A stretch of DNA of 51,707 nt from Gemmatimonadota bacterium (lineage in GTDB: Bacteria; Gemmatimonadota; Gemmatimonadetes; Longimicrobiales; Gaopeijiaceae), in assembly GCA_003567615.1 (NCBI GenBank), contig PWZC01000281.1, forward strand, positions 1 through 51,707, given 5' to 3'. Below the pieces are notes generated by a model that searched no databases, was not told the DNA's origin, and saw only the letters and a program-made list of their open reading frames with translations. This document shows positions 7,471 to 31,442 of the stretch, in pieces. How positions within the stretch are numbered: position 1 is the first letter of the stretch; each line of letters begins with the position of its first letter. The position numbers were made by a program, and so were the translations under genes.

Positions 7471-7779
7471 GCTGAAGCTCACTCATGGCGTTTGCTGAAG
7501 AGGACGTGGCGGAAGGAGGGCTTGAGGCCCACCGATTTCCTGCGGTCGCACGACATACGCCATGGTCTTTCTCCTTGGGGATCCTGCGACTGTCGTGTTG
7601 GTGGATACGGCAGGTTGACTTACCACATTGAACCATCGACACACATGAAAGCGGTACATATATCTCTTCTGAGGAGATTATTTCACGCATTGGCAACTCG
7701 CCCTTTGGACGTTTCACGCATGATGGTTCGTGGTTTGCTTCATCAAGCGTATGCAATAGGTGAGGGGCCAGACGGTGAT

Positions 7780-8601
7780 ATGCATTTGACCGAAGCTGAA
7801 AAGGCTGAGCAACTATACAAAATCATTAACGGTATAGTTGATGCTAATACACCCCTGCACCCCAAGAGTCACGGTCTATCTTCCCCACTGACAATCTCGT
7901 TGAAGTCTTATCCGCCATGATTTGCCACGCTACACCCAACACTACGGTGTCTGACCGCTCAAACGATGGTTCCGGACAACATCATTCTATGGGTGGCGTC
8001 CGGGGACGAAGGGAGACTTCCGAGCGAGATACGGGATCTAAGTCCGCTGATAGATGTGCGGACATGCGAGGATACTGGGCCTTACAAAAAGATAATCCCT
8101 GCCCTTGAAACGTTTCCTGACCATGTGATCATCACTGCAGATGACGACGCTTACTACTGGCCAAGCTGGCTGGAAGAACTCGTGCAATCATGGAGTGGGC
8201 GACGTACTGAGGTTGTTGGACATCTTCTTCACCGTATACAACTGAATAACGATAGATTACCTGCGCCGTATAGCAATTGGTCCTTGGATGATCCTGGTGC
8301 CACGGCGCCGTCTCGATTGAACTTTCCTGCCGGAGTTGGTGGGGTGCTGTATCCACCGGGTGTTTTTCATTCTGCTGTGTGTAATAGTTCGCTCTTCATG
8401 GATATCTGCCCTATGGCTGACGATGTCTGGCTTTACTGGATGGCAAGACTCAATCAGGCCAGTGCCAGAAGGACCAAGTCACAAAGGTCATTTGTGACAT
8501 GGCTTGAATCTCAAGGTAAAGCCTTGTGGAAGGACAATGTCTCGCATGGTAATGACAACGTCATAAAGGCCATGGTCGCCCATTTTGGTTTCCCCAATTA
8601 G
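7780..8601 (+). pseudogene. Glycosyltransferase (GT-A-like, ADDD motif) interrupted by an in-frame TGA at 7918-7920
   Basis: Track ORFs 7492-7920 and 7966-8601 are in the same frame. Reading through gives ...PLTISLKSYPP*FATLHPTLRCLTAQTMVPDNIILWVASGDEGRLP...IITADDDAYYWPSWLEEL. This is one continuous GT N-terminus (beta1 SL.SYP.RF, then ..Q...PD.IILW). TGA sits where Arg (CGA) is expected. The start at ATG 7780 is a guess. Confidence 0.55.
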
Positions 8602-8727
8602 CGCCGGTATTGGGACCGCTGGTGCTCGCGGCGGGCACACGCGTCGTCCTCCATATTTGCACTCATGTTCGTCGAGGCACCGAAATGGTCACTCCAGCAT
8701 ACCTACCATAAAGAGTGAAGAATTGCA

Positions 8728-9756
8728 ATGCCCGAAGTATCAGTAATCGTTCCCGCATACAATGCGAGCGCTTTGGTACCGAACGCCGTCAAAAGTATAC
8801 GGCAGCAGACCCTGCTCGATCTGGAGGTTCTGCTCGTTGATGATGGTTCTACTGATGCCACAGCCTCCGTTATGGACTTGCTCGCCAAGGAGGACCTGAG
8901 GATCCGAACGGTGAAAATGCCGGAAAACTCAGGTGTTTATGAAGCCAGGGCCACGGGCCTCGAGTTGGCGAGAGGAAAATGGGTAGGGTTCGTCGATTCT
9001 GATGACCTGGTAAAACCGGACATGTTTGAAATCATGGCGCGTGAGGGCGCAGATAGTGGCGCCGATATTGTCATTTGCGGCGTGGATATGTGCGACCAGG
9101 ATGGAAAGTTCCTACGTTACAGGGTGGAATTCCCTAGTACTCATACGGTCACTGAAGGGATTCTAGGACGATTTTGTGGATTCGGGTTTCAGACTGGCTC
9201 TCTTTGGAACAAGCTTTATCGGCGAGAGCTGATCACGAAATATCATGGGAAACCCCTCCGATGGCGACAAGATACCAACGAAGATGTCATCGTAAACATT
9301 GGGTGTTTTGCCGACGCTCTCCGGGTAAGAGTGGTAAAAGATAGTCTTTATAACAACCTCATCCGCACCGAGAGCGTGACACGGAGTCTTGATAACTCAC
9401 GTGCTTTCGTATCGCTGATTCGGGCTTACGCATTGGCCGTAGATCTGTACCACCATAGGGGTGAGGACGTGCTGGGGAATATCGATCGATTGTACCTACA
9501 TCAACTAGCATTCTCCTGCTATCGGGTCCGCTCTCTTGCCGAGTTGGAGCCGCACGCTGATCGATTCCGGGAGGCATTGACGATCCTGGCCAGGCTGCGG
9601 CCAGCCACCTTGTCCGCTTTCGCAAATCGAGGTCTATGGGAACCGGTAAGTCGGCAAAATACATTCGAGAGCAAATGGCGGGAGTGGCTATCCGCGTCCA
9701 AGCAACTGATCAAAAGTCTTGTCCCTCGCGTTCCCCGTGATGCAACACGAGAGTAG
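8728..9756 (+). CDS. Family 2 glycosyltransferase
   Basis: VSVIVPAYNASALVPNAVKSIRQQT, LEVLLVDDGSTD, VGFVDSDD (DxD). Low-GC codon usage. Confidence 0.88.
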   Translation: MPEVSVIVPAYNASALVPNAVKSIRQQTLLDLEVLLVDDGSTDATASVMDLLAKEDLRIRTVKMPENSGVYEARATGLELARGKWVGFVDSDDLVKPDMFEIMAREGADSGADIVICGVDMCDQDGKFLRYRVEFPSTHTVTEGILGRFCGFGFQTGSLWNKLYRRELITKYHGKPLRWRQDTNEDVIVNIGCFADALRVRVVKDSLYNNLIRTESVTRSLDNSRAFVSLIRAYALAVDLYHHRGEDVLGNIDRLYLHQLAFSCYRVRSLAELEPHADRFREALTILARLRPATLSAFANRGLWEPVSRQNTFESKWREWLSASKQLIKSLVPRVPRDATRE

Positions 9757-9788
9757 GTGGGTTTGGCGCGGGGCCTTGCGCCTGTCCA

Positions 9789-10607
9789 CTAATACTGTGC
9801 CAGCGTGCCCGCCCGCTTCGCGTACTTGAGCCCCACGCGAAATGTGGTGACTCCGACGGTGAGGAGGACCACGGTGAAGGTGAGGAGGATCATAAGGTCC
9901 GGGTAGATCGCTTCGATGGGTAGGCCCTGCAGGACACTCCGGCGGAGCCCACGGAGACCGTAGGTGAGGGGGACCACGAGGGCCAGAGGACGCACGATTT
10001 CAGGGATCACCGAAACAGAGTAGTAGACGCCCCCCAATAGCGTCGACACGGTCACTGTCGCGGCGATGAGCGGGCCTGAGGTGCGGAATACCAGGTGGAG
10101 CGCGGCACCCATGAGTCCCACCGCCAGGTAGCACAGAATGATGAGGCCAAGGATCAGAACGCCCAGGGGGAGTCCGGACCAGGCGATGGACTGCCCTGCA
10201 ATGGGGATGGCAGCCAGCATCAGCGCTGATCGGATCGTGTTCTGGACGAATCCGTACCCCACCAGCCCCGCGAGGAGGACTGGCAGGGACGTGGGTGTGG
10301 CAAAAAGGGCCTCCAGCGTTCCGGATGAGATCCCGGAGGCGATACCGTCGGTTACGCTCCGAATGGCAAAACCCACGTAGAGCGTCGCAATGAGGCCGAG
10401 AATGAGAAAACCGAAATACTGCTCTCCCTCGTCCTGAATGCTTGGGGATACGGTGGGCTGCAGCGCCTCGGCCACGAGAAAGAGGGGGACCAGTGAGACC
10501 AGTAGCCCGAAAAACGAGAAGACGATTCGAAGGCGGTAGCTTAGGGCCGTCAGGGCTGATGCCCGGACCAGGGCCAGGATCTTGGTCATCTCCCGGGTGA
10601 GTCTCAT
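9789..10607 (-). CDS. ABC-2 type transporter permease (putative lasso peptide export/immunity)
   Basis: Multi-TM protein, about six hydrophobic helices. Start trimmed to the ATG at 10607, which overlaps the ATPase stop (ATGA at 10604-10607). The longer track ORF (to 10799) has an Arg/Gly-rich N-terminus that overlaps the ATPase gene. Confidence 0.8.
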   Translation of the reverse strand: MRLTREMTKILALVRASALTALSYRLRIVFSFFGLLVSLVPLFLVAEALQPTVSPSIQDEGEQYFGFLILGLIATLYVGFAIRSVTDGIASGISSGTLEALFATPTSLPVLLAGLVGYGFVQNTIRSALMLAAIPIAGQSIAWSGLPLGVLILGLIILCYLAVGLMGAALHLVFRTSGPLIAATVTVSTLLGGVYYSVSVIPEIVRPLALVVPLTYGLRGLRRSVLQGLPIEAIYPDLMILLTFTVVLLTVGVTTFRVGLKYAKRAGTLAQY

Positions 10608-11668
10608 GCGCACCCCGCCACCACAGAAGAGGATTGAGCGGCGGGAATCGGATCGGCGGACAGGGTCTCTATGAATTCCGCCAGCGGCACTTCGCGGGGA
10701 CTCAGAAGAGCCACCTCGATCCCAAGCCCGGTGAGTTCCCGCACGAAGCGAGCGGCGGCGGCCCGCCCGCCGGGAATGTGGAGTCGGACGTGTTCCCACC
10801 CCTCACCGTCTCTGGCCTCCGGTAGGCCGTCCACCTCCAGATACGCCACTGAACCCAGTTGGCGGAGCGCCGCCTTCACTCGACCCCGGGCCACCAGTCG
10901 GTAGCGATTGTCCGCGACGGCCTCGAAGAGGTCGTCGGTGCGGCCATTCACCACAAGACGCCCATTCTCGAGAATCCCCACCCGGGGGCAGAGCTCCCGA
11001 ACCTCTTCCGCATCATGGGTGGCCAAGAGGATCGTGCACCCCTGTTCCCGGTTGATCCGGTCCCGAAGGAACACCCGGAGATTCCGGGCCGACACCGGGT
11101 CCAGGCTGCGGGTCGGTTCGTCCAGGAGCAGGACCGCCGGATCCGAAAGGAGCGCTCTGGCGACCAGAAGCCTTTGCTTCATCCCGGACGAAAAGAGACC
11201 CACCTGTTTCGTGCCCGTATCCCCAAGATCCACCACGTCCAGGACGTGGTCCACCCGCTTACGGGCCTCGACTCCGGAGAATCCCTGTAGCGATGCGTAG
11301 AGCTTGAGATTCTCTTCGGCATTCAACCGCCAGTAGAGCGACCGCTCATAGGGAATCACGGGGACGAGACGCCGCCGCACCGCCATGGGATCCTCGGCAA
11401 CGTCGATACCATCGACCCTGGCCGTTCCCGAGTCGGGGAGTACGAGTGTGGCCAGGATCTTGAAGAGCGTCGTCTTTCCGGCGCCGTTCTTCCCCAGAAG
11501 CCCAAAGAACTCCCCCTTACGTACGGAGATGGAGACGTCGTGAAGAGCTTCCTGATAGGAAGTGGATCGCGGGTGGAGGACGGTTTCCTTCCAGGAGCGT
11601 CGCACCGGAAATCGCTTGGAGACCGCCTTCACTTCGACCAGTCCGCCTGCGTCGACGGAGGGCGTCAT
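10604..11668 (-). CDS. ABC transporter ATP-binding protein (ABC-2 subfamily partner)
   Basis: Walker A GLLGKNGAGKTT, signature FSSGMKQRLLVARAL, Walker B LLLDEPTRSLD, H-loop LLATHD. The ATG overlaps the B2 stop (ATGA at 11665-11668). Confidence 0.92.
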   Translation of the reverse strand: MTPSVDAGGLVEVKAVSKRFPVRRSWKETVLHPRSTSYQEALHDVSISVRKGEFFGLLGKNGAGKTTLFKILATLVLPDSGTARVDGIDVAEDPMAVRRRLVPVIPYERSLYWRLNAEENLKLYASLQGFSGVEARKRVDHVLDVVDLGDTGTKQVGLFSSGMKQRLLVARALLSDPAVLLLDEPTRSLDPVSARNLRVFLRDRINREQGCTILLATHDAEEVRELCPRVGILENGRLVVNGRTDDLFEAVADNRYRLVARGRVKAALRQLGSVAYLEVDGLPEARDGEGWEHVRLHIPGGRAAAARFVRELTGLGIEVALLSPREVPLAEFIETLSADPIPAAQSSSVVAGCA

Positions 11669-12168
11669 GCGATGGAGTCCGGGAGGTCTACCGAGAAAAC
11701 CTCGGGCAGCTTGCGAAACGAATGGATGTGGGCGGGATCATCTCCGATCACTACGGCGTCCAGCTCCACCCAGGCGTGGGCCTGGAAGTCACCGTCCAGC
11801 TTTCTGACCCCCACCTCCACCCGGCAGGGGCCGAGACCCTCTCGGCGCAGAAGATCCCGGAGGGCCAGAGATCGCACGAGGCACTGGGGTCGGCCCGGAC
11901 CGAAGCGGGCCGCCTGGTGCACCGCCCAGGCCAGGTCCGACGCCCTGCGCCTCTTCTCCAGGGAAAGGGAGACCAGACCGTCGGCCTTCAGTCCGGCATG
12001 CCCCCCGGTCTCGTCGAGCCTGGCGGCTGTAAGGAAGCGGCCCCTGGGAATCGTGGCCTTCCGAACGCCCCAGCGCATGAGCGCTACCTGCGCGCGGCCC
12101 AGATCAGCCCAGCCGCGTGGGCCGATGGAGGCGAGCGTCTGTAGGCGTCCCAGTGTTCTGGAGAGCAC
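11665..12168 (-). CDS. Lasso peptide leader peptidase, B2 protein (transglutaminase-core cysteine protease, McjB C-terminal-domain type)
   Basis: Signature RPQCLVRSLALRDLLRREGL...VGV......FQAHAWVELD, the Cys/His/Asp core typical of lasso B2 proteins. Size about 167 aa. GTG start at 12168. Confidence 0.88.
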   Translation of the reverse strand: MLSRTLGRLQTLASIGPRGWADLGRAQVALMRWGVRKATIPRGRFLTAARLDETGGHAGLKADGLVSLSLEKRRRASDLAWAVHQAARFGPGRPQCLVRSLALRDLLRREGLGPCRVEVGVRKLDGDFQAHAWVELDAVVIGDDPAHIHSFRKLPEVFSVDLPDSIA

Positions 12169-12203
12169 AGTAGGTTCAATTCCTGGGTAGATGACGGATC
12201 AGA

Positions 12204-12225
12204 CCCCGGTTGTGGTCAGCCGGGG
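12204..12225 (-). promoter_or_regulatory. GC-rich hairpin about 43 nt downstream of the precursor A1 stop (possible intra-operon attenuator or RNA stabiliser)
   Basis: ccccggttg/tggt/cagccgggg: 9 bp stem (one G-U pair) with a 4-nt loop. No U-tract follows on the transcribed strand. Confidence 0.35.
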
Positions 12226-12267
12226 AAGACTGCGACCCCTCGACTCTCCCGTACCCAGACCCCTCGG

Positions 12268-12447
12268 TCAGGAGGGGGTGGGGGTGCAGAACTTGTCGCT
12301 CCGTATGCTCGGAGTGCACCGGCCCCACCCGAAGGCCTCCCAGCCCTCATACGCATCAAAATCGGCGATACCGAGTCCCTCACCACCCCTGGTGAGTTCA
12401 CGGAAGGTACCGAGGCAGGTGAGTCGAGGCGTCTCATACATGGGCAT
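12268..12447 (-). CDS. Lasso peptide precursor A1 (59 aa): MPMYETPRLTCLGTFRELTR | GGEGLGIADFDAYEGWEAFGWGRCTPSIRSDKFCTPTPS
   Basis: Internal ATG of track ORF 12268-12507, preceded by GGAG 4 nt upstream (ctgcGGAGccgtATG). The leader has the lasso motif Y-x-x-P-x-L-x3-G-x5-T with Thr at -2. The core starts with Gly1 and has Asp9, suitable for a 9-residue macrolactam. It lies between the cyclase and B2 genes. Confidence 0.85.
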   Translation of the reverse strand: MPMYETPRLTCLGTFRELTRGGEGLGIADFDAYEGWEAFGWGRCTPSIRSDKFCTPTPS

Positions 12448-12508
12448 ACGGCTCCGCAGCAGGTGAGTCCGGAACAACGGCCAAATGAACTGTTGAACAT
12501 GGCACAAC

Positions 12509-14440
12509 TCATGCCAACCTAGCCTTCAACCACCTTTCGCTGGAAATTGCCCTGAGCAGGGAGGCCCAACCTCCGGAATCCAGGTCTGCCTTGGACTGAA
12601 GGAGGACTCTGAGCGGGTCGCGGCGAATGAGTCCCATCTCCTCCGTCAACCACTCTTCGGGTCGAGCCAGTTCCACGTCGGCCTGTCTCAACAGTTCGGG
12701 AACGTAGATCTCTCGCATGAGACCTTGGGCCGTTCCGGTCCGAAGGCCACGGTTTCGAATCTCCAGGAACGTGTGCGGAAGGTACGGTCTCATGGCGTCC
12801 CGTAACAGGGCTTTCGGTTCGAGGGGACGGTACATCCAGGACGGCGGAAAGCTGCGGATCAGTCGCGCAAGTCGAAGGTCCAGTAGTGGGGATCGCAGTT
12901 CCACTCCCCTGAAGCGCAGGTCGTCGAAGAGGGCGGCACCAAATCGACTAAATCGATAGTTCAGGAGCGCCCAGGCGCGCCATCCTTCGAAGGGTGAGTC
13001 CGCCGTCTCCATCCGGAGGGAATCGAAGCTCTCCTGGTCAACCAAGAGGATCTCCTGCGCCTCCTCTGTGGAGGTTCGGATCCACTCCGGCAGGGACCGG
13101 CCCGCCGGGCGGGGAATGATGGTCCTTCCCAGGATATGTTCCAGCCTCCGACCGAGATCCGGGTGTAGGTTGATCCGGACAGATGTGTCGATGGCTCGCC
13201 ATATGGGGATGGGGCGATGAGCCCAGAGCAGGCGGGCAGACACGATGGGCCTGAAGCGCCGGAAATGCTCGGCCAAAACCATGCTCGGGGAGGTGGAAAA
13301 CTGATTGTCGCCTCCACGGCCGGTCAAGAGCACCCGATGGCCCTCCTGGATGGCTCGGGTGGCCAGCGCCTGCTGCACACCGTTGAAGGGATACCGGCCG
13401 GGGTGGGAGTGATGGTCCTGAGGCCGATCCAGCCATTGCTCCGTCCGGATCGCATCGTACCCCACCCACTGAACGTCCAGGCTGAAGTGTCGGGCTGCGG
13501 ACTCGATCCACGGTCGCTCGAACCCGGGGTCCCCCTCGGGATAGTCGATGGAGAGGAGGGCGAGATCCCGCTGCCGGGCCGTCGAACCGGCCCCCTTCAA
13601 GCCGGCGAGAACGGCGGACGAATCCTGACCACCACTGAGCGCCAGGGAAGCGCCCACGCTGGGGGACCGTTCCGCCACACTGGCAAGGATCTGCCGGCCG
13701 ACAACCCCTGCCGCTTCTTCCCGCGGCGGCCTGGTGGTCGCCCACAACTCGGGCTGGCCAGCGAACCGGTGCACGCGAAGGTCGCCCCGACCCGCTGTGA
13801 CGAAGTGACCGGCAGGGAGTTCCAGGATCCCCTTCCAGGCGGTCCGGGAGCCATCTCCGGGGATTCCCGAGAGAGCGCTGAAAACCCCGGCTTCGTCGAA
13901 AGCCGGATATGGGGCAGGCGCACCCGCCGGACCCGCGCCCGCCAGGACAGTGGCAGACGAGTGCATGAGGATGGTGGAGCCCAGGGTCCGATAGAATAGC
14001 GACCGGGTGCCAAATACATCCCTGGCCGCAAAGAGCGTGCTGTCCGAGGTGTTCCACGCACAGAAGGCGTAGTCCCCCTCCAGGTGCAGCACACACGCCT
14101 CTCCGTAGGCCAGATAGGCGGCAGCAATGAGGTCGGCCGGACTCAACGACACAGGAGGATGCCCGATCTTCTTCAGCTTTTCCAGCAGATCGCTTCGGAA
14201 GTAGAGGCTCGCATCGCAGCCGACCACAACGGGGCCTGCCCGACCCATGAGGACCGGGCTCGCCACGTCATCCTCCATTTCCCACCGATCCCGGGCCACT
14301 CCGAGGAAGCCCCCCGAGTCGAACCTCTTGACCTCCACCTGCTCGGAGCCACGCCATGCTGCGCCCCGCAGGAGGGCTCGAACCCGTTCTTCGGGCCATG
14401 CATCCGGATGCGGGTCGACCCCGGCTGAGAGACATGTCAC
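12509..14440 (-). CDS. Lasso peptide cyclase C1 (asparagine synthetase B-fold, ATP-dependent macrolactam synthetase)
   Basis: PP-loop LALSGGQDSSAVLAGL. The AsnB-like N-domain lacks the Met-Cys glutaminase start (it begins V/M-T-C-L-S-A-G from GTG 14440). The N-terminus is colinear with the second cyclase. Adjacent to the precursor and B2. Confidence 0.85.
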   Translation of the reverse strand: MTCLSAGVDPHPDAWPEERVRALLRGAAWRGSEQVEVKRFDSGGFLGVARDRWEMEDDVASPVLMGRAGPVVVGCDASLYFRSDLLEKLKKIGHPPVSLSPADLIAAAYLAYGEACVLHLEGDYAFCAWNTSDSTLFAARDVFGTRSLFYRTLGSTILMHSSATVLAGAGPAGAPAPYPAFDEAGVFSALSGIPGDGSRTAWKGILELPAGHFVTAGRGDLRVHRFAGQPELWATTRPPREEAAGVVGRQILASVAERSPSVGASLALSGGQDSSAVLAGLKGAGSTARQRDLALLSIDYPEGDPGFERPWIESAARHFSLDVQWVGYDAIRTEQWLDRPQDHHSHPGRYPFNGVQQALATRAIQEGHRVLLTGRGGDNQFSTSPSMVLAEHFRRFRPIVSARLLWAHRPIPIWRAIDTSVRINLHPDLGRRLEHILGRTIIPRPAGRSLPEWIRTSTEEAQEILLVDQESFDSLRMETADSPFEGWRAWALLNYRFSRFGAALFDDLRFRGVELRSPLLDLRLARLIRSFPPSWMYRPLEPKALLRDAMRPYLPHTFLEIRNRGLRTGTAQGLMREIYVPELLRQADVELARPEEWLTEEMGLIRRDPLRVLLQSKADLDSGGWASLLRAISSERWLKARLA

Positions 14441-14614
14441 GGTCCGATTCCGTCCCCGTTCTTCATCCCGTGATCCTCTCAGGTTTCTTCATGGGCATGG
14501 CACGCAACGTGCACCCCCATGGCTTCGCTCAGCCGACCCTCCTGCCTGGAATGCGATGGACCCTTCCAGGCTTCATCACCGCTCTTTCGTCCGGTTTCCG
14601 GTCTGGATCATCTC
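14441..14614. promoter_or_regulatory. Divergent intergenic region between the C1 operon (-) and the B1-kinase operon (+); presumed bidirectional promoter region
   Basis: Inferred only from gene arrangement. I could not recognise clear -35/-10 elements. Confidence 0.3.
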
Positions 14615-14923
14615 ATGATCAAGCTTCCGAATCGAGGTCCCAACGTCATCTTCCAGGAGATGGACGACGAGGCTGTTCTGTTCTGTACCCAGTCCGAAGT
14701 CTACTTCGGGCTGAATTCAGTCGGCAAGACGATCTGGGAATTGTTGGGGGATGGAGTTACCCGCTTCGACAAATTGATTGCGCTCCTGTCACAGCGATAT
14801 CCAGAGGTCGAGGAACGTGTTCTGCAAGAGGATGCCGCAGAATTCCTCGAGCAACTTCACGAGAACGGCTTGGTCACAGCCCCGGCGGCCGACCCTCAGC
14901 AGGACGATGCCGGGCATGGATGA
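14615..14923 (+). CDS. PqqD-family RiPP recognition element, lasso B1 protein
   Basis: MIKLPNRGPNVIFQEMDDEAVLFCTQSEVYFGLNSVGKTIWELLGDG...LIALLSQRYPEV...EDAAEFLEQLHENGLV: a typical PqqD/RRE pattern of about 100 aa. An upstream in-frame start at 14519 is possible, but it would add a non-homologous 32-aa extension. Confidence 0.82.
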   Translation: MIKLPNRGPNVIFQEMDDEAVLFCTQSEVYFGLNSVGKTIWELLGDGVTRFDKLIALLSQRYPEVEERVLQEDAAEFLEQLHENGLVTAPAADPQQDDAGHG

Positions 14924-15947
14924 CCTCGGCCATGCCACCGCAACCGGAGAGCATCCCGGATCCACGAAGACTCGGGAGCTCGGGTTCACCTATGCCCTGT
15001 TCGGTGGAGTGATTCACTCGTCGATACCGCTCCCGGAGTTACGTCCCGTCGATTCGGACGTCTGGGATTGGCACTTCGAGGTGGTGGATGAGCTGGAGCC
15101 GGCTCGAGAGGTGAGGACCATGGGATCGATGCAAATGTATGCGGAGATCTACAGTCGGACGTACGCTCACGCCGCTGGGTACCGCGTAGAGGTCGACGAT
15201 ACAGGGGTCTTCGATGTTTCTGCCGATGGGACGTTCATCCGACACCGGCCCCGTGCGGACCCATGGTGGGACTTCGGACGAGCTCATCTGCTCGGTCAGG
15301 TCATGGCCATCTCCCTTCAGATCCGCAGCGTCATCACACTGCACGCCAGCGCCGTGGAAACCCGTGATGGGGTCATCGGATTCCTGGCACCCAAGCACTT
15401 CGGGAAGACCACCCTGTCCCTGATCTTGACCCGGGAGGGAGCTCGGTTCGTGACGGACGACACGCTTCCCGTGCAACTCGGCGACCCACCTCTGGCTCTC
15501 CCCGGCGTCCAGAGTCTTCGAGTCCTTGCGGACAACGAGGAGGCGAAGGAGTTGATTCGAGGCGCCTTCGGTGCCCCGGTCCGACTCGAATCAGCGAATC
15601 GGGATGGAAAGATCCGGACCCCCCCACTGCCATTGCCCAGGATTCTCTCTCGCGCCCGGAAGCTGGAGGCGCTCTATCTCCTCCAGCCGGTTCGAGCCGG
15701 GGATGGTGGAGAGTCGGTGGAAAGGCTTCCCACCCACGGACCGGAGGCAGTTGCCAATGTTCTCGGTCAAACCAAGATCGGTGGGGTCCTTGGACCTGGT
15801 TTCGTGCCGGACCTCCTTCGCCAGGTATCCGGCATCGCCCGCCAGGTGCCCGTCTACCGACTTCGGATCGTCCGGGACCTGGAGCGGCTCCCCGAAGTGG
15901 CTGAACGGCTGCTCTCCTGGCATGGGACACCCGGAGAGGTGACCTGA
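14907..15947 (+). CDS. HPr kinase/phosphorylase-like serine kinase (paeninodin-type lasso precursor kinase)
   Basis: LHASAVETRDGVIGFLAPKHFGKTTLSLIL (P-loop [AG]x4GK[ST]) followed by FVTDD. Same layout as the HprK C-terminal kinase domain. Start is ATG 14907 or ATG 14916; both overlap the B1 stop (ATGGATGA at 14916-14923). Confidence 0.72.
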   Translation: MPGMDDLGHATATGEHPGSTKTRELGFTYALFGGVIHSSIPLPELRPVDSDVWDWHFEVVDELEPAREVRTMGSMQMYAEIYSRTYAHAAGYRVEVDDTGVFDVSADGTFIRHRPRADPWWDFGRAHLLGQVMAISLQIRSVITLHASAVETRDGVIGFLAPKHFGKTTLSLILTREGARFVTDDTLPVQLGDPPLALPGVQSLRVLADNEEAKELIRGAFGAPVRLESANRDGKIRTPPLPLPRILSRARKLEALYLLQPVRAGDGGESVERLPTHGPEAVANVLGQTKIGGVLGPGFVPDLLRQVSGIARQVPVYRLRIVRDLERLPEVAERLLSWHGTPGEVT

Positions 15948-15957
15948 GCTCGAAATC

Positions 15958-17202
15958 TCATTTCCCCAGGAGACCCCGCACGTAGGCGGTGGTCTCCACA
16001 ACCCGATCCAGACGTCGTCGGACCGGACTGGGAGGCGTCAGTGAGTCCGGAGCCGAGGAGTCTGCCGGCGAATCCTCCCCCACTTTCGTCTCGATTCCCG
16101 CCGACTTCCACGCGTCAGTCCGCGCCCACGGTCGAATCGTGCCGTGCTCTGAGCGACCCGGTCGGAGGGCTGCCTCCCAGATCAGTTGCCGGATCTTCAC
16201 GGGTGGCCGGGGCGCCCGCGAGGGGGGAGCGAACATCTGGGCATAGTGCTTTCTGACCAGGGCGATGATGGGCTTTGGCGTCGGTGCCTCCAGCGTCTCC
16301 AACCAGTCCGGGTCCACGGGAACATTGCCCCATTCTGTGGCCAGATGAAGTGTCCACCAGAGAGTGGATTCCGCTTTGGCCTGTCGGGCCGTACGGACGA
16401 CCTGATCCCACTGAAGCTCGGGGCGGGTGACGAGCAGACCGGTATCTCGAAGCGCCTTCCACGTGCCAGACTCGAGTGCATGGGACCAGGCGAAGTGGAT
16501 TGAGTTGTGGATGAGCATGTGCTCCCACGATGGCCTCAGGGTTCCCGGTAGGGCGCCGATGGGTACGGCCTCCCGCCACAGGTCCCGCGCAGCGAAGTGG
16601 AACGGATTCTCCTTCTGGAAGATCTCCGTGTGGATCTCCAGTCCGAGGAAAAGGCCGCTGCCATCTACGAGGGGTGGAAGATGGTGATGCTCTTCGTAGA
16701 CCTCTTCCTGGACCGAGTTGGCCCGATGGGCCCAATCGAGACCGCGCGCAATTTCCCATACTGCAGAAGAGTGCTCGGGATGGACAAGAAGGTCCACATC
16801 CCACATGGGGCGGTCGATCACCGGGAGATCCAGGGCGTGGACCAGGCCGCTCCCCTTCAGCAGAACCAAGGGGATCGAAGCCGACTCGCACTCCGCGGCA
16901 AGACGACGAAGTTTGCGCTGCATTTCTCCGAGCCTGAGGGCGTGGGTGAGCCGAAGACGCTGCATGGCCTTCAGGCCGTCGTCATCGATGTCCAGTCCCG
17001 GGTGGGATCGTCTCGTCGCGGTGAGGGCATGGACGAGAGCGGGTAGCGCCGACTCCCGTTGCGCAAGATAGATCAGGAGGGGCCAGTCAACGGACCCGTC
17101 CCACCCGGCATCGGTGAGCTCTCGCAGTACATGGGAGCCCTCGGGCCTTCGATGCGCTGTGGCCAGGACAAGCCGTGATTCCCACAAGAGCGAATCTTTC
17201 AT
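15958..17202 (-). CDS. Nucleotidyltransferase-fold family protein (uncharacterised NTP_transf_5-like), putative lasso tailoring enzyme
   Basis: PLVLLKGSGL...PMWDVDLLV (G-S ... D-x-D nucleotidyltransferase core) followed by a helical C-terminal region. Start trimmed to ATG 17202, preceded by AGGAAG (AGGAAGCTCATG). The track ORF to 17349 would overlap the cyclase C2 3' end. Confidence 0.6.
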   Translation of the reverse strand: MKDSLLWESRLVLATAHRRPEGSHVLRELTDAGWDGSVDWPLLIYLAQRESALPALVHALTATRRSHPGLDIDDDGLKAMQRLRLTHALRLGEMQRKLRRLAAECESASIPLVLLKGSGLVHALDLPVIDRPMWDVDLLVHPEHSSAVWEIARGLDWAHRANSVQEEVYEEHHHLPPLVDGSGLFLGLEIHTEIFQKENPFHFAARDLWREAVPIGALPGTLRPSWEHMLIHNSIHFAWSHALESGTWKALRDTGLLVTRPELQWDQVVRTARQAKAESTLWWTLHLATEWGNVPVDPDWLETLEAPTPKPIIALVRKHYAQMFAPPSRAPRPPVKIRQLIWEAALRPGRSEHGTIRPWARTDAWKSAGIETKVGEDSPADSSAPDSLTPPSPVRRRLDRVVETTAYVRGLLGK

Positions 17203-17276
17203 GAGCTTCCTGAGGGTGGCTGAAGCGGCGGGTCCAAGTGGACACCGCTCCTGGGGGACAGGGAGAAAGTGTGCGG

Positions 17277-19214
17277 TCAGGATCGAGGCGGTGCGTGCGC
17301 TTGCAGCCACTCTTCGACGGCAACCATGGCCACGATGAACGCATCCCACTCCAGCCTCCCCTCGAGAGCCCGATCGACGCTGCGGCGGAACCGATCCGGA
17401 GAGACCAATCCCATCCTGACAGACTCCCAGGGCGTGCGCAACCGCGATATCTTCTCCTGGATCTCAGATTCAAGCCGACGATGGAAGTAGTGTTCAAATG
17501 TGCCCGTCTTGCCCCGCCCACCGAGACGGGGCGCCAGGATTTCCTCGGGAAGTCTGCCCCTCATGGAGTCGCGGAGCAGGGGCTTCAGTTCTCCCGGGCG
17601 ATGCATCTCCTCGAATGGGCGGCTCAGGGCGAAAGACAGGACGCGTCGATCGTAGAAGGGCGAGCGGAGTTCCACGCCCTCACTTCTGAGGACCGCGAAG
17701 AGGGTCGCGCACACCCGGGAGAAGCGGGAATCCGACGCGGCCCATACCCGGAAGCGGGAATCGACGGAACGATGACGGGCCAGGACCCTCTTTGCATACG
17801 CGGTGCGATTGCCCTCCCGGATCTTGCTCACTTCGAGGACTTCGCCATTGAGCCAGGGGGGCACCGGCCACTCAAAGGGGCGGGAATCGATGGGACGGCG
17901 GAGAACCAGCTCGAGAAGGTCGAACATGGGATAGGGAATGGACGGCTTTATGACCCAACGTTTGATGTGCCCGAGTTTCGGTCGGCGGCCTTCGGGCAGA
18001 AGACGAAAAAGTTGTAGCCACCGCCCGCTACGAAAGAGATCAGCGAGAAAATAGGGCGGAACGAAAAAGAGATTATCACCACCATTCCCGCTGAGGAGGA
18101 CGCGCACGCCGAGGTCACGGGCTGTCCGACCAAGGGCCCGGTTCAGGCTTTCGTGGAGGTGACCTTCCGGATAGGCACGCTCAGCAACCTGGGAAGGATC
18201 GCGGTTCAACAATCGGATACCGTCGGTATCAACCCAGTTTATTGGGAGCCCAAAGGATTCCGCAGCTATCGAAAGATAACGATCTTCATTTGCATGTTCT
18301 TCCGGAGGTAGCCTGTATGAGAGAAGGTGGAACGGAATGTCTTCCGGGAAGGTCTCAGTCCCTCTGTAGAGTGCGCCCAGTAGAGCCGTCGAGTCATAAC
18401 CTCCACTTATGGCCAGGCCTGCCCCTGACTCGGGTACTCGCCCGCGGACGGATTTCGAAAGGATGGCCGCCAATGCCTCCGGCGCTTCCCGGCCCCAGGA
18501 TACCTGAGCTGCTGGATCTGACCCGGGCTTCCACGATTCACTGATTCGAAAGCTGACGCCTTCGGCATTGTCCTCATGCACCCAGGCATCCAGATGATGG
18601 CCCGGTGGGAGTTCCTCGATCCCTTCCCAGGCGGACGCCTGACCCACTCCACCGTGGAAGAGGAGTGACCTGAGCGTCGCAACCGGGTTGAACGATGGGG
18701 GACGTTCGAACAGCGAGACGAGGGGATGTGGAGTGGAGGCGAGCAGCAATCCCCCATCCACCTGCCGGAAGAAGAGGCTTCGCGATCCGAAGGGGTCCCG
18801 GGCTGCAAGGAGAGTTCGCTTCTCCGGATCCCAGGCGACAAAGGCGAAGTCCCCGAAGAGGTGATTCGGGCAGTTCCCACCCCACGCTCGATAGGAGGCG
18901 GCGATGAGATCCGAGGGAGACTTTGATCGGGGTGGCCATCCTGAGACGCTGAGATGTCCGCTCAGCGCCTTCCGGTCGTAGAGCGCAGCGTCTGAACAGA
19001 CAAGGGCCGACTCGCAAGTTCCAATGCGAGCCGGCCCTGCAATGTCGTCGGGTTCTTCCCAATCGTCCCGGATGACCCCCAACATCGCCCCGTCCGAGCG
19101 AATCACATCAAGCTTTTCCGAGCCTCTGCCTGGAATGGCCCGCAGCAACCGAGCGAATCCATCATGGTCAAGCCGCTGTGCAGCCGGTCCCAGGAATGCA
19201 ATGATTCCACTCAT
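17277..19214 (-). CDS. Lasso peptide cyclase C2 (asparagine synthetase B-fold)
   Basis: Starts MSGIIAF, with no Cys nucleophile. PP-loop LAISGGYDSTALLGAL. Colinear with C1 (e.g. GDFAFVAWDPEKRTLLAARDPFGSRSLFF versus GDYAFCAWNTSDSTLFAARDVFGTRSLFY). Precursor A2 lies immediately upstream. Confidence 0.85.
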   Translation of the reverse strand: MSGIIAFLGPAAQRLDHDGFARLLRAIPGRGSEKLDVIRSDGAMLGVIRDDWEEPDDIAGPARIGTCESALVCSDAALYDRKALSGHLSVSGWPPRSKSPSDLIAASYRAWGGNCPNHLFGDFAFVAWDPEKRTLLAARDPFGSRSLFFRQVDGGLLLASTPHPLVSLFERPPSFNPVATLRSLLFHGGVGQASAWEGIEELPPGHHLDAWVHEDNAEGVSFRISESWKPGSDPAAQVSWGREAPEALAAILSKSVRGRVPESGAGLAISGGYDSTALLGALYRGTETFPEDIPFHLLSYRLPPEEHANEDRYLSIAAESFGLPINWVDTDGIRLLNRDPSQVAERAYPEGHLHESLNRALGRTARDLGVRVLLSGNGGDNLFFVPPYFLADLFRSGRWLQLFRLLPEGRRPKLGHIKRWVIKPSIPYPMFDLLELVLRRPIDSRPFEWPVPPWLNGEVLEVSKIREGNRTAYAKRVLARHRSVDSRFRVWAASDSRFSRVCATLFAVLRSEGVELRSPFYDRRVLSFALSRPFEEMHRPGELKPLLRDSMRGRLPEEILAPRLGGRGKTGTFEHYFHRRLESEIQEKISRLRTPWESVRMGLVSPDRFRRSVDRALEGRLEWDAFIVAMVAVEEWLQAHAPPRS

Positions 19215-19270
19215 GTCAACATTGGCTGAACCCTGCCAAGCAGCCGAATGTGGAGCAAGGTAAGCTCGAA

Positions 19271-19288
19271 ACGGGGGGATTTCCCCGT
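19271..19288 (-). promoter_or_regulatory. GC-rich hairpin about 53 nt downstream of the precursor A2 stop, between A2 and C2
   Basis: acgggg-ggattt-ccccgt: 6 bp G/C stem (7 bp with a G-U pair) and a 4-6 nt loop. Only UU follows on the transcript. Confidence 0.35.
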
Positions 19289-19340
19289 CTACTCCCCAAA
19301 ATCAGAGGTTCGCCGACTTAGAGCAGGTCGAACCTACCGA

Positions 19341-19502
19341 TTAACAACCCGAGCAGGAGATTTCCACGGTCGAAGAGACGAAGTCGCCAATCCCCGAGGA
19401 GTACCCATTGGCAGGGTCTCCGCCGTTCACGGTCGTTCCGGAAAGGGTCAGCTCGCGCAGGGTACCGAACCTCTGGAGGGAGGGCTTCTCGTACACAGGC
19501 AT
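19341..19502 (-). CDS. Lasso peptide precursor A2 (53 aa): MPVYEKPSLQRFGTLRELTL | SGTTVNGGDPANGYSSGIGDFVSSTVEISCSGC
   Basis: Absent from the ORF track because it is under 60 aa; found by manual translation of the reverse strand. ATG at 19502, TAA at 19343-19341, GAGG just upstream (agtGAGGtATG). The leader motif matches A1, with Thr at -2. Core has Ser1 and Asp9. Confidence 0.8.
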   Translation of the reverse strand: MPVYEKPSLQRFGTLRELTLSGTTVNGGDPANGYSSGIGDFVSSTVEISCSGC

Positions 19503-19801: not shown

Positions 19802-21367
19802 ATGGCTTCCGATCCCCAGCTCGACCTTTCCTTCCTGACCCGCCTCGGCGTGGACGGCACCCACCTCTCGGGCACCTCCACCGGACGGCATACCCTGGAC
19901 CCGGCCACCGACGCCGACAGTCCGGCCTCTCTCCGAAGCACCACACCGGTGGATGGGAGCCTCATTGCCACCGTGGCGAGCACCGATCGTAGTCAGTACG
20001 AAGAGGTTGTGGCCCGAGCCCAGGAGGCGTTCCGGTTCTGGCGCGAGGTGCCGGCCCCTCGACGGGGTGAGGTCGTTCGGCAGATCGGCGACGAACTCCG
20101 GGCCCACAAGGACGATCTCGGCCGGCTGGTGGCCTATGAAATGGGCAAGATCACCGAGGAAGGGAAGGGCGAAGTTCAGGAGATGATCGACATCTGCGAC
20201 TTCGCCGTGGGTCAGTCCAGGATGCTCTACGGGAAGACCATGCCCTCAGAGCGCCCCGAGCACCGCCTCTACGAGCAGTGGCACCCCCTGGGACCGGTGG
20301 CGGTGATCACGGCCTTCAACTTCCCGGTGGACGTCTGGGCCTGGAACGCCATGATCGCCGCAGTTTGCGGCGATGTCATCATCTGGAAGCCATCGGAGAA
20401 GACGCCGCTGTGCGCCATGGCGGTGCAGGGGATCGTGGCCCGGGTTCTGGAGCGGAACGAACTCCCCGAGGGGATCTTCTCCGTCGTTCAGGGAGGGCGC
20501 GAGGTGGGCGAGTTCCTCACCACCGACGAGCGCATTCCCCTGGTTTCGGCCACCGGGTCAATCCGCATGGGGCGTGAGGTGGGCCGCACGGTAGCGGTGC
20601 GTCTCGGCCGCACTCTGTTGGAGTTGGGCGGCAACAACGCCATCATCGTCTCGAGCCAGGCCGACCTGGACCTGGCCGTTCGGGCCATCGTCTTCGGCGC
20701 TGCGGGCACGGCGGGACAGCGGTGCACCACAACCCGTCGTCTCATCGTCCATGAGGATGTCTTCGACGAGCTGAGGGAGCGCCTGATCCGGGCTTACTCC
20801 GGGCTTCGTATCGGCAGTCCCCTGGATCCGGAGACGCTGGTTGGGCCCCTGGTGGATGCCGACGCCGCTCGGGCCATGCAGGAGGCGCTGGAGCAGCTCA
20901 AGGCCTCGGGGGGTGAGGTCCTCTTCGGGGGCGAGATTCTGGATGGGGAGGGATTCGAGGCGGGGAACTATGTCCGCCCGGCCATCTGCCTGGCCGAGAA
21001 CGACTTTCCCATCGTTCAGGAAGAGACCTTCGCACCCATCCTCTATCTCATGCGCTACCGGGAGCTGAATGAGGCCATCGACCTCCAGAACGGAGTCCGG
21101 CAGGGGCTCAGCTCGTCCATCTTCACCAACGACGTTCGGGAAGCTGAAGCTTTTCTCAGCGCGCGCGGGTCCGACTGTGGGATCGCCAACGTGAACATCG
21201 GCACCAGCGGCGCCGAGATCGGGGGTGCCTTCGGCGGGGAGAAGGACACCGGAGGCGGGCGCGAGTCGGGCTCCGATTCCTGGAAGGTCTACATGCGCCG
21301 CCAGACCAACACCATCAACTGGGGGCGGACGCTCCCCCTCGCCCAGGGGATCGAATTCGACGTGTGA
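19802..21367 (+). CDS. Aldehyde dehydrogenase, ALDH7/antiquitin-like (alpha-aminoadipic semialdehyde / piperideine-6-carboxylate dehydrogenase type)
   Basis: LELGGNNAIIV, catalytic GQRCTTTRRL, EETFAPILY, and the ALDH7-typical C-terminus GSDCGIANVNIGTSGAEIGGAFGGEKDTGGGRESGSDSWKVYMRRQTNTINW. Start trimmed to ATG 19802 (MASDPQL...). Confidence 0.88.
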   Translation: MASDPQLDLSFLTRLGVDGTHLSGTSTGRHTLDPATDADSPASLRSTTPVDGSLIATVASTDRSQYEEVVARAQEAFRFWREVPAPRRGEVVRQIGDELRAHKDDLGRLVAYEMGKITEEGKGEVQEMIDICDFAVGQSRMLYGKTMPSERPEHRLYEQWHPLGPVAVITAFNFPVDVWAWNAMIAAVCGDVIIWKPSEKTPLCAMAVQGIVARVLERNELPEGIFSVVQGGREVGEFLTTDERIPLVSATGSIRMGREVGRTVAVRLGRTLLELGGNNAIIVSSQADLDLAVRAIVFGAAGTAGQRCTTTRRLIVHEDVFDELRERLIRAYSGLRIGSPLDPETLVGPLVDADAARAMQEALEQLKASGGEVLFGGEILDGEGFEAGNYVRPAICLAENDFPIVQEETFAPILYLMRYRELNEAIDLQNGVRQGLSSSIFTNDVREAEAFLSARGSDCGIANVNIGTSGAEIGGAFGGEKDTGGGRESGSDSWKVYMRRQTNTINWGRTLPLAQGIEFDV

Positions 21368-21411: not shown

Positions 21412-22551
21412 ATGAAACTCCTGAAGCTCCTCCTTCACTTCGCCGTCGGTGCCCTGGTGGGCATGGGCGTCGGCTACCTCCTGGTGGCGACCGGATGGGC
21501 GTCGGAGGTGCTGGAGCTGGTGGGTCGGGTGGAGCTGGGGCCGGGTGGGTTTGCTCTCTTCCTGGCGGGCATACCCGTCCTCCTCTTCTTCCTTGTGCTG
21601 ATCCACGAATTGGGCCATTTGACGGGCGGGCGCCTCGCGGACTTCCGGGCCTACCTCCTTCTTGTGGGGCCGCTCCGGGTGGAACGGATCCGGGGAAGGT
21701 GGACGATGGGGCTGAATCCGCGTATCGCCACCTGGGGGGGGCTTGCCGCCAGCGCCCCCGATGACGCCCGAAGCCTTCGGGGGCGCATGGCGCTCTATGC
21801 GGCGTCTGGACCGGGCGCGAACCTCCTCACCGGAGGGCTTGCCCTGGCGCTGCTGGTGACGGCCGCCGGAACCCTGCCGCCGGTTCTCCACGCCTGGGTC
21901 ATGGCCTTCCTCCTGGGCTCCTTCCTCCTGGGAATCCTGACCCTCATACCGGGCCAGGCTGCAGGGATGTATACGGACGGAGGCCGGCTCCTGCGGCTTC
22001 TCCGGACCGGGCCGGAACTCGAGGGGGAGTTGGCGCTCATCGCCCTTACCGGACTTTCCTTGGCCGGCCGGCGGCCCCGTACATGGCCGGAGGCGCTGGT
22101 CGGCCAGGCCCTCACACTGCCGCCCGATTCCCTCATGGGAGTCTTCGCGCGCCAGGTGGCCTACCTTCGAACCCTGGATCTGGGCGATGTCGAAGGGGCC
22201 CAGGGGTACCTGGACGAGGCCCTGGCCCACCGGGACGCCGTGGGAAAGCGGGGCGGTGCCACCATTCGACTACACGGTGCGTTCTTCTACGCGGTTCACG
22301 GGGGCGACCCAATGCGCGCCCGTGCGCTCCTAGACGAGGCCCGTGAGTCGCCTCTCGAGGCCCGTCACCTCCGCCCCATGGCGGAAGCGGCCGTGCGCAT
22401 GGCCGAGGGGGACGAGGCAGGGGGGCGGGCTAAGCTGGACGAGGCTCTGATCCTCGCAGGAGCATCCATGGACAGGGGAAGTTCCGGGGCCGAGGAAGAG
22501 TGGCTGAACCTCCTTCAGCGAAAGGTCGGACACCAGCGGGCTCGGGTGTAG
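21412..22551 (+). CDS. Membrane metalloprotease, M50 (site-2 protease)-like, with a soluble helical C-terminal domain
   Basis: HELGH zinc motif embedded in TM helices (LFFLVLIHELGHLTGG). Several further TM segments. Ala/Leu/Arg-rich helical C-terminal half. Confidence 0.7.
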   Translation: MKLLKLLLHFAVGALVGMGVGYLLVATGWASEVLELVGRVELGPGGFALFLAGIPVLLFFLVLIHELGHLTGGRLADFRAYLLLVGPLRVERIRGRWTMGLNPRIATWGGLAASAPDDARSLRGRMALYAASGPGANLLTGGLALALLVTAAGTLPPVLHAWVMAFLLGSFLLGILTLIPGQAAGMYTDGGRLLRLLRTGPELEGELALIALTGLSLAGRRPRTWPEALVGQALTLPPDSLMGVFARQVAYLRTLDLGDVEGAQGYLDEALAHRDAVGKRGGATIRLHGAFFYAVHGGDPMRARALLDEARESPLEARHLRPMAEAAVRMAEGDEAGGRAKLDEALILAGASMDRGSSGAEEEWLNLLQRKVGHQRARV

Positions 22552-22653
22552 CAAGAGATCCGACCTAGCCTGGCACACGGCTTGCGATCTCAAGAAAGGT
22601 GCCTTCCCTGGCCCACCGCAGCTCCGGCCTTCCATTCCCTCCGAACAACGCCG

Positions 22654-31441: not shown

Positions 31442-31442
31442 T

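Follow-up and report, generated by a model that had tools for sequence, protein, structure and literature searches.

A lasso-peptide gene cluster with two precursor/cyclase pairs and one set of processing, tailoring and export genes in an uncultured Gemmatimonadota bacterium

Background

Can a single set of leader-processing, tailoring and export proteins serve two lasso-peptide precursors, each with a cyclase of its own? The question is raised by a locus at positions 9789-19502 of a 51,707-nt stretch of DNA (the window) from a Gemmatimonadota bacterium of the Gaopeijiaceae (assembly GCA_003567615.1, contig PWZC01000281.1, forward strand). An earlier note on this DNA had identified two pairs of precursor (A) and cyclase (C) genes, one B protein split into B1 and B2, together with a kinase, a nucleotidyltransferase and an ABC-2 exporter, and had listed five aspects of the arrangement as unusual. 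In multi-precursor lasso clusters, such as those of the caulosegnins, several precursors are handled by one B and one C protein. The window resembles such clusters in having several precursors on one leader-processing machinery; it differs in that each precursor has a divergent cyclase (35% identity), whereas caulosegnin-type clusters use a single cyclase for all.

The locus is a genuine lasso-peptide gene cluster of an uncultured Gemmatimonadota bacterium. It is likely to be a kinase- and nucleotidyltransferase-tailored cluster, similar to those of paeninodin and pseudomycoidin and belonging to a widespread Gemmatimonadota family, in which two A/C modules are combined with a single copy of everything else. 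A further proposal is plausible but more tentative: the A/C pairs may be exchangeable cassettes, with two clade-distinct, specificity-matched cyclases placed on one shared set of recognition, protease, tailoring and export proteins. One locus would then yield two products, a phospho(glyco)-lasso peptide with an unusually long and strongly conserved 39-residue core, and a Cys-terminated lasso peptide that escapes the kinase.

Organization of the cluster

The analysis drew on an open reading frame (ORF) listing, gene calls on the source contig, Pfam and NCBIfam hidden Markov models (HMMs), tblastn, PDB sequence searches and AlphaFold. Between 9789 and 19502 the ORF listing and gene calls give a total of eleven genes, ten of which are as follows:

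9789-10607, minus strand: ABC-2 permease, exporter subunit, 272 amino acids (ABC2_membrane, PF01061, 39.1 bits)
10604-11668, minus strand: DrrA-like ABC ATPase, 354 amino acids (ABC_tran, PF00005, 107 bits)
11665-12168, minus strand: B2 leader peptidase, a transglutaminase-core cysteine protease (Transglut_core3, PF13471, 79.5 bits, cut-off 26)
12268-12447, minus strand: precursor A1, 59 amino acids (lasso leader model NF033521, 26.3 bits, cut-off 19)
12509-14440, minus strand: cyclase C1, an AsnB-fold macrolactam synthetase, 643 amino acids (Asn_synthase 76.9 bits, GATase_7 51.8 bits)
14615-14923, plus strand: B1, a PqqD-like recognition element (RRE) for peptides made on the ribosome and modified after translation (RiPPs), 102 amino acids (PF05402, 58.9 bits, cut-off 23.4)
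14907-15947, plus strand: HPr-kinase-like peptide kinase, 346 amino acids (assigned from its family profile, a conserved motif and the predicted fold)
15958-17202, minus strand: NTP_transf_5 nucleotidyltransferase-fold protein, 414 amino acids (PF14907, 102 bits, cut-off 31.2)
17277-19214, minus strand: cyclase C2, an AsnB-fold macrolactam synthetase, 645 amino acids (Asn_synthase 85.3 bits, GATase_7 64.4 bits)
19341-19502, minus strand: precursor A2, 53 amino acids (NF033521, 25.4 bits, cut-off 19; leader motif match)

The permease, ATPase, B2, A1 and C1 genes thus share the minus strand, B1 and the kinase lie on the plus strand, and the nucleotidyltransferase, C2 and A2 genes are again on the minus strand. 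Every component lies where the earlier note had placed it, and the identification of the cluster is upheld, the family assignments either passing the corresponding HMMs or being consistent with them. Two contigs that were assembled separately (ENA ERZ27301262 and Logan SRR490129) show an identical gene order, which makes an assembly chimera unlikely.

The strict leader expression Y..P.L...G.....T. has exactly two matches in the six frames of the window, each beside a cyclase; the mean for shuffled sequence is 0.03-0.055 matches. These two are A1 and A2, as had been proposed from the short ORF with a lasso leader seen next to each cyclase.

Precursor peptides

The A1 leader is MPMYETPRLTCLGTFRELTR and its predicted core of 39 residues is GGEGLGIADFDAYEGWEAFGWGRCTPSIRSDKFCTPTPS. 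This core begins with Gly1, has Asp9 (GGEGLGIAD) and two cysteines, and ends in serine (...TPTPS). A2 has the leader MPVYEKPSLQRFGTLRELTL and a predicted core of 33 residues, SGTTVNGGDPANGYSSGIGDFVSSTVEISCSGC, with Ser1, Asp9 (SGTTVNGGD) and a C-terminal CSGC (...SCSGC), and thus without a terminal serine. The recognition motif, with its penultimate threonine, is common to both leaders. The cores appear to be longer than lasso peptides characterised to date. The macrolactam ring comprises 7-9 residues (PMC8498205), and a ring-closing acid in this range, Asp9, is present in A1 and A2 alike.

The two precursors stand as the earlier note had them; what it missed is that A1 carries the terminal serine that is the target of the kinase and A2 has none. 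In about 30 related precursors a C-terminal serine is found in all but one, the exception being the second precursor of the related locus L013 (...CSGPDSNC), which is likewise Cys-terminated and stands beside a cyclase of the C2 clade. L013 also has an orthologue of A1, in which 31 of the 39 core residues are identical and Gly1, Asp9, both cysteines and the terminal serine are kept; 19 codon differences between the two genes are synonymous and 15 non-synonymous. The leader of this orthologue (L013, 6351-6524), MYEASRLTRFGGFRDLTQ, has a serine in place of the proline of the Y-x-x-P motif.

The two cyclases

C1 and C2 had been described as AsnB-fold proteins that keep the SGGxDS PP-loop and lack the Met-Cys start, and this is what is found: the PP-loops read SGGQDS and SGGYDS, and the N-termini M-T-C-L and M-S-G-I. 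The two true AsnB genes of the window (29405-31654, minus strand, and 40021-41961, plus strand) both begin with M-C-G, and their Asn_synthase (PF00733) scores are 314 and 289 bits. Specific lasso-cyclase models give a mixed picture. The AsnB domains and PP-loop agree with the proposed function and lasso cyclase ranks among the top NCBIfam matches of both proteins, but on the lasso cyclase model NF033535 they score only 103 bits (C1) and 152.7 bits (C2) against an exception-level cut-off of 525; C2 scores 127 bits on NF033561. The genomic context supports the assignment of both proteins as lasso cyclases.

C1 and C2 are paralogues, 35% identical over their full length, and they fall into separate clades. 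The sole partner of C1 in a neighbour-joining tree is a 57% identical orthologue from L013 (P0122), and C2 groups with cyclases of L013, L015 and L016 that lie next to an aldehyde dehydrogenase (ALDH) gene. P0122 adjoins the A1 orthologue of L013, and the nearest homologue of C2 (49%, L015) is preceded by a precursor with a Ser1...Asp9 core (SGQTAGVGD...). The pairing of each precursor with its neighbouring cyclase is supported by this co-conservation of C1 and A1 in L013 and by the association of the C2 homologue with an A2-like precursor in L015.

Leader processing and export

Both halves of the B protein are confirmed by family models. B2, recognized earlier from the sequence QCLVRSLAL...QAHAWVELD, carries the QCLVRS...AHAWVELD signature and scores 74.4 bits on the lasso_biosyn_B2 model NF033537 (cut-off 33) in addition to its Transglut_core3 match. 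Two starts are available, a GTG at 12168 giving 167 amino acids and an ATG at 12078, chosen by the gene caller, giving 137; the longer form is favoured by the HMM match, which sets in at residue 28 of the 167-residue ORF. The PDB sequence search returned nothing useful for B2. B1, proposed as a PqqD/RRE protein of about 100 residues and passing PF05402, scores 49.5 bits on NF033536, and the NCBIfam lasso PqqD models match it under their exception-level cut-offs. Its best PDB relative is the lasso RRE TbiB1 (5v1u, E 6.9e-8), and 9x90_B and TfuB1 are also matched.

The exporter consists of separate ATPase and ABC-2 permease genes, and not of one McjD-type polypeptide that combines ABC_membrane and ABC_tran domains. 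The ATPase scores 220 bits on the drrA model TIGR01188, under the cut-off of that model. There is an overlap of 4 nt between the permease start and the ATPase stop, and one of equal length between the ATPase and the B2 stop. In related loci, permease orthologues (42-58% identical) are placed after the ATPase.

No second B1, B2, kinase or nucleotidyltransferase was detected by tblastn in the 51.7-kb window. Because no second set is present there and both leaders keep the recognition motif, the simplest reading is that B1, B2, the kinase and the nucleotidyltransferase are shared.

Kinase and nucleotidyltransferase

The kinase gene overlaps the end of B1 by 17 nt. The expected HprK C-terminal domain is not matched in Pfam by the window protein alone, for which the HprK-related NCBIfam matches are also weak (E 0.004-0.006), but it emerges at the level of the large family to which the protein belongs: 31 of 33 kinase family members match Hpr_kinase_C (PF07475) weakly, and the family profile matches the HPrK/P structures 1ko7, 1jb1 and 2qmh with E ~1e-3 across the P-loop and DD region. 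An AlphaFold (AF2) model with a predicted local distance difference test score of 91.8 resembles the PEPCK and HPrK/P folds. Residues H146, K167, D184 and D185 are invariant in the 33-member alignment. A His-Lys-Asp-Asp motif is conserved and essential in lasso-tailoring kinases (PMC9266682), and the terminal serine of the linear precursor is the target of PadeK, ThcoK, SyanK and PsmK (PMC9266682, PMC8498205).

The nucleotidyltransferase passes the NTP_transf_5 model, as anticipated, and carries a KGSG...DVD motif; an NTP_transf_5 protein is found in nearly all related loci. A PDB search by sequence gave no useful relative, and nothing relevant on PF14907 together with lasso peptides was found in the open-access literature.

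Proposed pathway

Taken together, these assignments suggest a pathway in which B1 would bind the Y-x-x-P-x-L...T-x leader common to A1 and A2, and B2 would cut after the residue that follows the conserved threonine. C1 would then close a Gly1-Asp9 macrolactam on the A1 core, and C2 a Ser1-Asp9 macrolactam on the A2 core. The HPrK-like kinase may phosphorylate the C-terminal serine of linear A1, and the NTP_transf_5 protein may decorate the resulting phosphate, by analogy with PsmK and PsmN. A2 ends in cysteine and so probably escapes this tailoring; a Cys-x-x-Cys disulfide may form in it instead. Export of the products would fall to the ATPase and ABC-2 permease.

Several points weigh against this reading. 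Every step of the pathway is drawn from homology or analogy; the likeness of the kinase to PadeK, ThcoK, SyanK and PsmK is one of motif and predicted fold, and that of the nucleotidyltransferase to PsmN one of published description. Both cyclases lie far under the cut-off of NF033535, a model that is exception-level and built on other phyla. With cores of 39 and 33 residues, threading is not assured. The nucleotidyltransferase gene sits in the A2-C2-N operon (N being the nucleotidyltransferase), although A2 is without the serine that the analogy with PsmN needs. The sharing of B1 and B2 is deduced solely from the lack of a second set within the 51.7-kb window, and since pseudomycoidin can form without B1 and B2 (PMC6993621), A2 and C2 might not need a B protein.

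This last point leads to an alternative, in which A2 and C2, perhaps with the nucleotidyltransferase, would be a self-sufficient unit beside the A1 cluster, using B proteins encoded elsewhere or none. Such a unit would be in keeping with the finding that psmA and psmC alone give pseudomycoidin in vivo and with a cyanobacterial cluster that has no B genes (PMC6993621), as well as with the arrangement of A2-C2-N as its own transcription unit, convergent with B1 and the kinase. Cyclases of the C2 clade also always adjoin the ALDH gene, and in L016 and L042 they lie apart from the remaining cluster. The ALDH-adjacent cyclase of L016 is, however, the sole cyclase of a complete A-B1-B2-K-D-D-N set (K, kinase; D, exporter genes), which argues that C2-clade cyclases work with the shared set. 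The A2 leader, moreover, retains the full B1/B2 recognition motif down to the penultimate threonine, and no other B1 or B2 lies within 51.7 kb. We consider an independent A2/C2 unit unlikely.

Distribution among Gemmatimonadota and variation of the A/C modules

About 25 informative related loci were obtained from kinase scans of species-representative genomes and metagenomes and from contig look-ups for cyclase homologues, and every one with a taxon name belongs to the Gemmatimonadota. They have in common a package of C, A, B1, B2, the HPrK-like kinase, an ABC ATPase, an ABC-2 permease and an NTP_transf_5 protein, in the order C-A-B1-B2-K-D-D-N or A-B1-B2-C-K-D-D-N. Because they are shared across these loci, a precursor following the cyclase, a two-gene ABC-2 exporter and the kinase/nucleotidyltransferase pair are the norm for the clade. 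Single-cyclase loci such as L004, L005, L014, L016 and L030 resemble the window in the eight-gene package, with proteins 30-58% identical, the leader motif, the C-terminal serine and the ABC-2 exporter. The window differs from them in having two cyclases of different clades and in placing B1 and the kinase in a separate, divergent operon.

This comparison alters the picture of what is unusual here. The position of A1 between C1 and B2, the two-gene exporter and the presence of a kinase and a nucleotidyltransferase had all been listed as unusual, and all are standard in the relatives; multi-gene ABC exporters are also known from actinobacterial lasso clusters, and kinase/nucleotidyltransferase tailoring has already been published for paeninodin and pseudomycoidin (PMC9266682, PMC6993621, PMC8498205). 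The position in a polysaccharide locus, also listed, is common to L016. With four of its five unusual points ordinary, the earlier note overstated the novelty of the cluster. The remaining point, two A/C pairs with a single B1 and B2, is borne out as uncommon: two cyclases are found only in the window, L013 and L015 (3 of about 25 loci), and the other loci with a visible cyclase have one each, sometimes with two flanking precursors (L017, L026, L028 and L039). The rare feature is a second A/C pair beside a single leader-processing set, and the remaining features are clade-typical.

The rarity of two-cyclase loci could also mean that one module is functional and the other a recently acquired or decaying copy produced by recombination in a hypervariable island. 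The order and orientation of the lasso genes differ among the window, L013, L015, L016 and L042, and A2 has lost the terminal serine typical of the family, as such a history might predict. Against this stand two full-length cyclases with intact PP-loops and two intact precursors above the leader-model cut-off. The A1/C1 pair is kept in L013, with more synonymous than non-synonymous changes in A1, and the Cys-terminated precursor beside a C2-clade cyclase recurs there too. A single functional module is, in our judgement, improbable, and two working modules on one shared set remain the preferred reading.

The related loci show further variation. L015 (1-6367) has the order A-C-ALDH-C-A on one strand, with both cyclases from the C2 clade and both precursors Ser-terminated; its A/C module duplication is apparently a second, independent event. 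In L017, L039 and L040 (e.g. L017, 9467-16844), a sub-family has two precursors around one cyclase, followed by B2, the kinase, ATPase, permease and nucleotidyltransferase, and no B1/PqqD gene was detected in these three loci (tblastn E<0.01, no Pfam call). L011 has two kinase genes (2706-3650 and 9679-10909), and a separate precursor stands before the second of them; this suggests that another, partial cluster follows the first at a distance of about 3 kb.

Some relatives may make products other than the usual lasso. On the 14-kb contig of L008 (1-13973) the precursor, B1, B2, kinase and nucleotidyltransferase are present and no cyclase is detectable; Asp and Glu are both missing from the predicted core, NGFQTSLSCYSCS, and the product may be a phosphorylated linear peptide and not a lasso. 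The first of the two precursors of L028 (713-853) has a Ser-terminated core, QQAGGAPTSPTWIAINPVMPVLYGVPTAS, and cannot close the usual macrolactam because this core contains no acidic residue.

Genomic setting

The window as a whole is an exopolysaccharide locus, with a GNVR/AAA_31 chain-length regulator, Poly_export, a UDP-GlcNAc 2-epimerase, many glycosyltransferases, two HepA/MsbA-like fused ABC exporters and the two true AsnB genes. The earlier note had recognized that the cluster is wedged into such a locus, and had missed that the flanking ALDH gene belongs to a conserved backbone, with the lasso genes reshuffled around it. The neighbouring features that bear on the cluster are:

4583-6364, plus strand: fused ABC_membrane and ABC_tran exporter
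19215-19340, minus strand: stable stem-loop in the spacer between A2 and C2 (minimum free energy -50.5 kcal/mol, z -3.15; a fold as good in 0 of 200 shuffles)
19802-21367, plus strand: ALDH, L-piperidine-6-carboxylate dehydrogenase (equivalog, 826 bits, cut-off 730)
21412-22551, plus strand: M50-like membrane protein, syntenic with the ALDH in relatives
22582-24471, plus strand: fused ABC_membrane and ABC_tran exporter, best match HepA family

The ALDH is 83-90% identical among L013, L015, L016, L020 and L042, and the lasso proteins of these loci are 35-57% identical. In L013, L016 and L042 the ALDH and M50-like genes are separated by an inserted cyclase, which in L013 and L042 is accompanied by a precursor; in the window, A2-C2-N lies on the other side of this pair. 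The pattern suggests that the lasso genes form a fast-evolving island at a fixed chromosomal site around conserved backbone genes, and that A/C modules have been duplicated or moved within it more than once.

Its position raises the question of whether the ALDH could itself have a tailoring role in the cluster. It is cyclase-adjacent in six loci and recurs beside the cyclases of L013, L015, L016, L020 and L042; it directly abuts a cyclase gene in L013, L015 (at both of its ends), L016 and L042, some 10-20 nt lying between the two. In the window, ALDH and A2 are divergent. The protein is nonetheless an equivalog-level match to a primary lysine-catabolic enzyme, L-piperidine-6-carboxylate dehydrogenase, and keeps its 83-90% identity where the lasso proteins retain only 35-57%. 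It is absent from all lasso loci outside this sub-lineage, and its partner, the M50-like gene, is syntenic as well. A tailoring role is highly improbable, and the candidate was rejected.

The fused ABC proteins were likewise considered as McjD-type exporters and rejected: they are HepA/MsbA-like, lie in a polysaccharide context and are not kept together with the lasso genes in relatives. They flank the lasso island and probably belong to the polysaccharide locus.

The stem-loop between A2 and C2 may be an attenuator or an mRNA stabiliser, and could set the ratio of precursor to enzyme. No significant RNA structure was found in the A1-B2 spacer, and scans for terminators and promoters gave counts not above those of shuffled sequence.

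At the permease end of the cluster, the region 7000-10000 has a G+C content of 52-55%, compared with 62-70% elsewhere in the window, and takes in a 211-residue ORF, a GT2 gene and the permease gene's end. The ORF (7966-8601, plus strand) lies between the epimerase and GT2 genes, has no Pfam or NCBIfam match and is called in both assemblies. It may hold sugar-modification genes that reached the border of the lasso island by horizontal transfer.

Comparison with characterised systems

The cluster is most readily compared with those of paeninodin (padeC-A-K-B1-B2-D, Paenibacillus dendritiformis) and of the kinases ThcoK and SyanK, with which it shares the split B1/B2, a His-Lys-Asp-Asp HPr-kinase-like kinase and, in A1, a C-terminal serine precursor (PMC9266682, PMC8498205). 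Those systems are from Firmicutes or Proteobacteria, whereas the window is from Gemmatimonadota, and it differs from them further in its two-gene exporter of ATPase and ABC-2 permease, in an extra A/C pair whose precursor lacks the terminal serine, and in predicted cores that are much longer (39 and 33 residues).

Pseudomycoidin (psmC-A-K-B1-B2-N-D, Bacillus pseudomycoides) offers a parallel for the combination of a kinase with an NTP transferase, the window protein being an NTP_transf_5 member with a G-S...D-x-D motif. PsmN, an 'uncharacterized NTP transferase', puts one or two hexoses on the phosphorylated terminal serine (PMC6993621), and the likeness to PsmN is drawn from this published description. 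The psm cluster has one cyclase and the window two, and in the window the N gene belongs to the A2-C2-N operon and not to the A1 operon (C1-A1-B2-ATPase-permease).

For export, the actinobacterial leepeptin (leeDF) and sviceucin (sviD1-D4) clusters also encode ABC components separately, and not as a fused McjD-type protein (PMC6856326, PMC9266682); the likeness covers a multi-gene ABC exporter, and these clusters are from another phylum and have no kinase/nucleotidyltransferase tailoring.

In the open-access literature, no description was found of one split B protein shared by two lasso cyclases, and in the searchable literature no characterised lasso peptide from Gemmatimonadota; lasso clusters of this phylum appear in the open literature only as antiSMASH counts (PMC11316326). 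The silence on two-cyclase clusters is weak evidence of novelty.

Implications

If both modules use one B1 and B2, the cluster would be a natural case of a leader-processing set that serves two different cyclases; in other respects it is a further member of the described kinase/nucleotidyltransferase-tailored class. Such sharing would be relevant to lasso engineering, for example to mixing and matching cyclases under one leader. The predicted cores, 33-39 residues here and up to about 50 in relatives, would provide a test of how far the lasso fold tolerates long tails. Sharing of this kind would also bear on the ways in which RiPP clusters diversify, with A/C cassettes swapped and not whole clusters.

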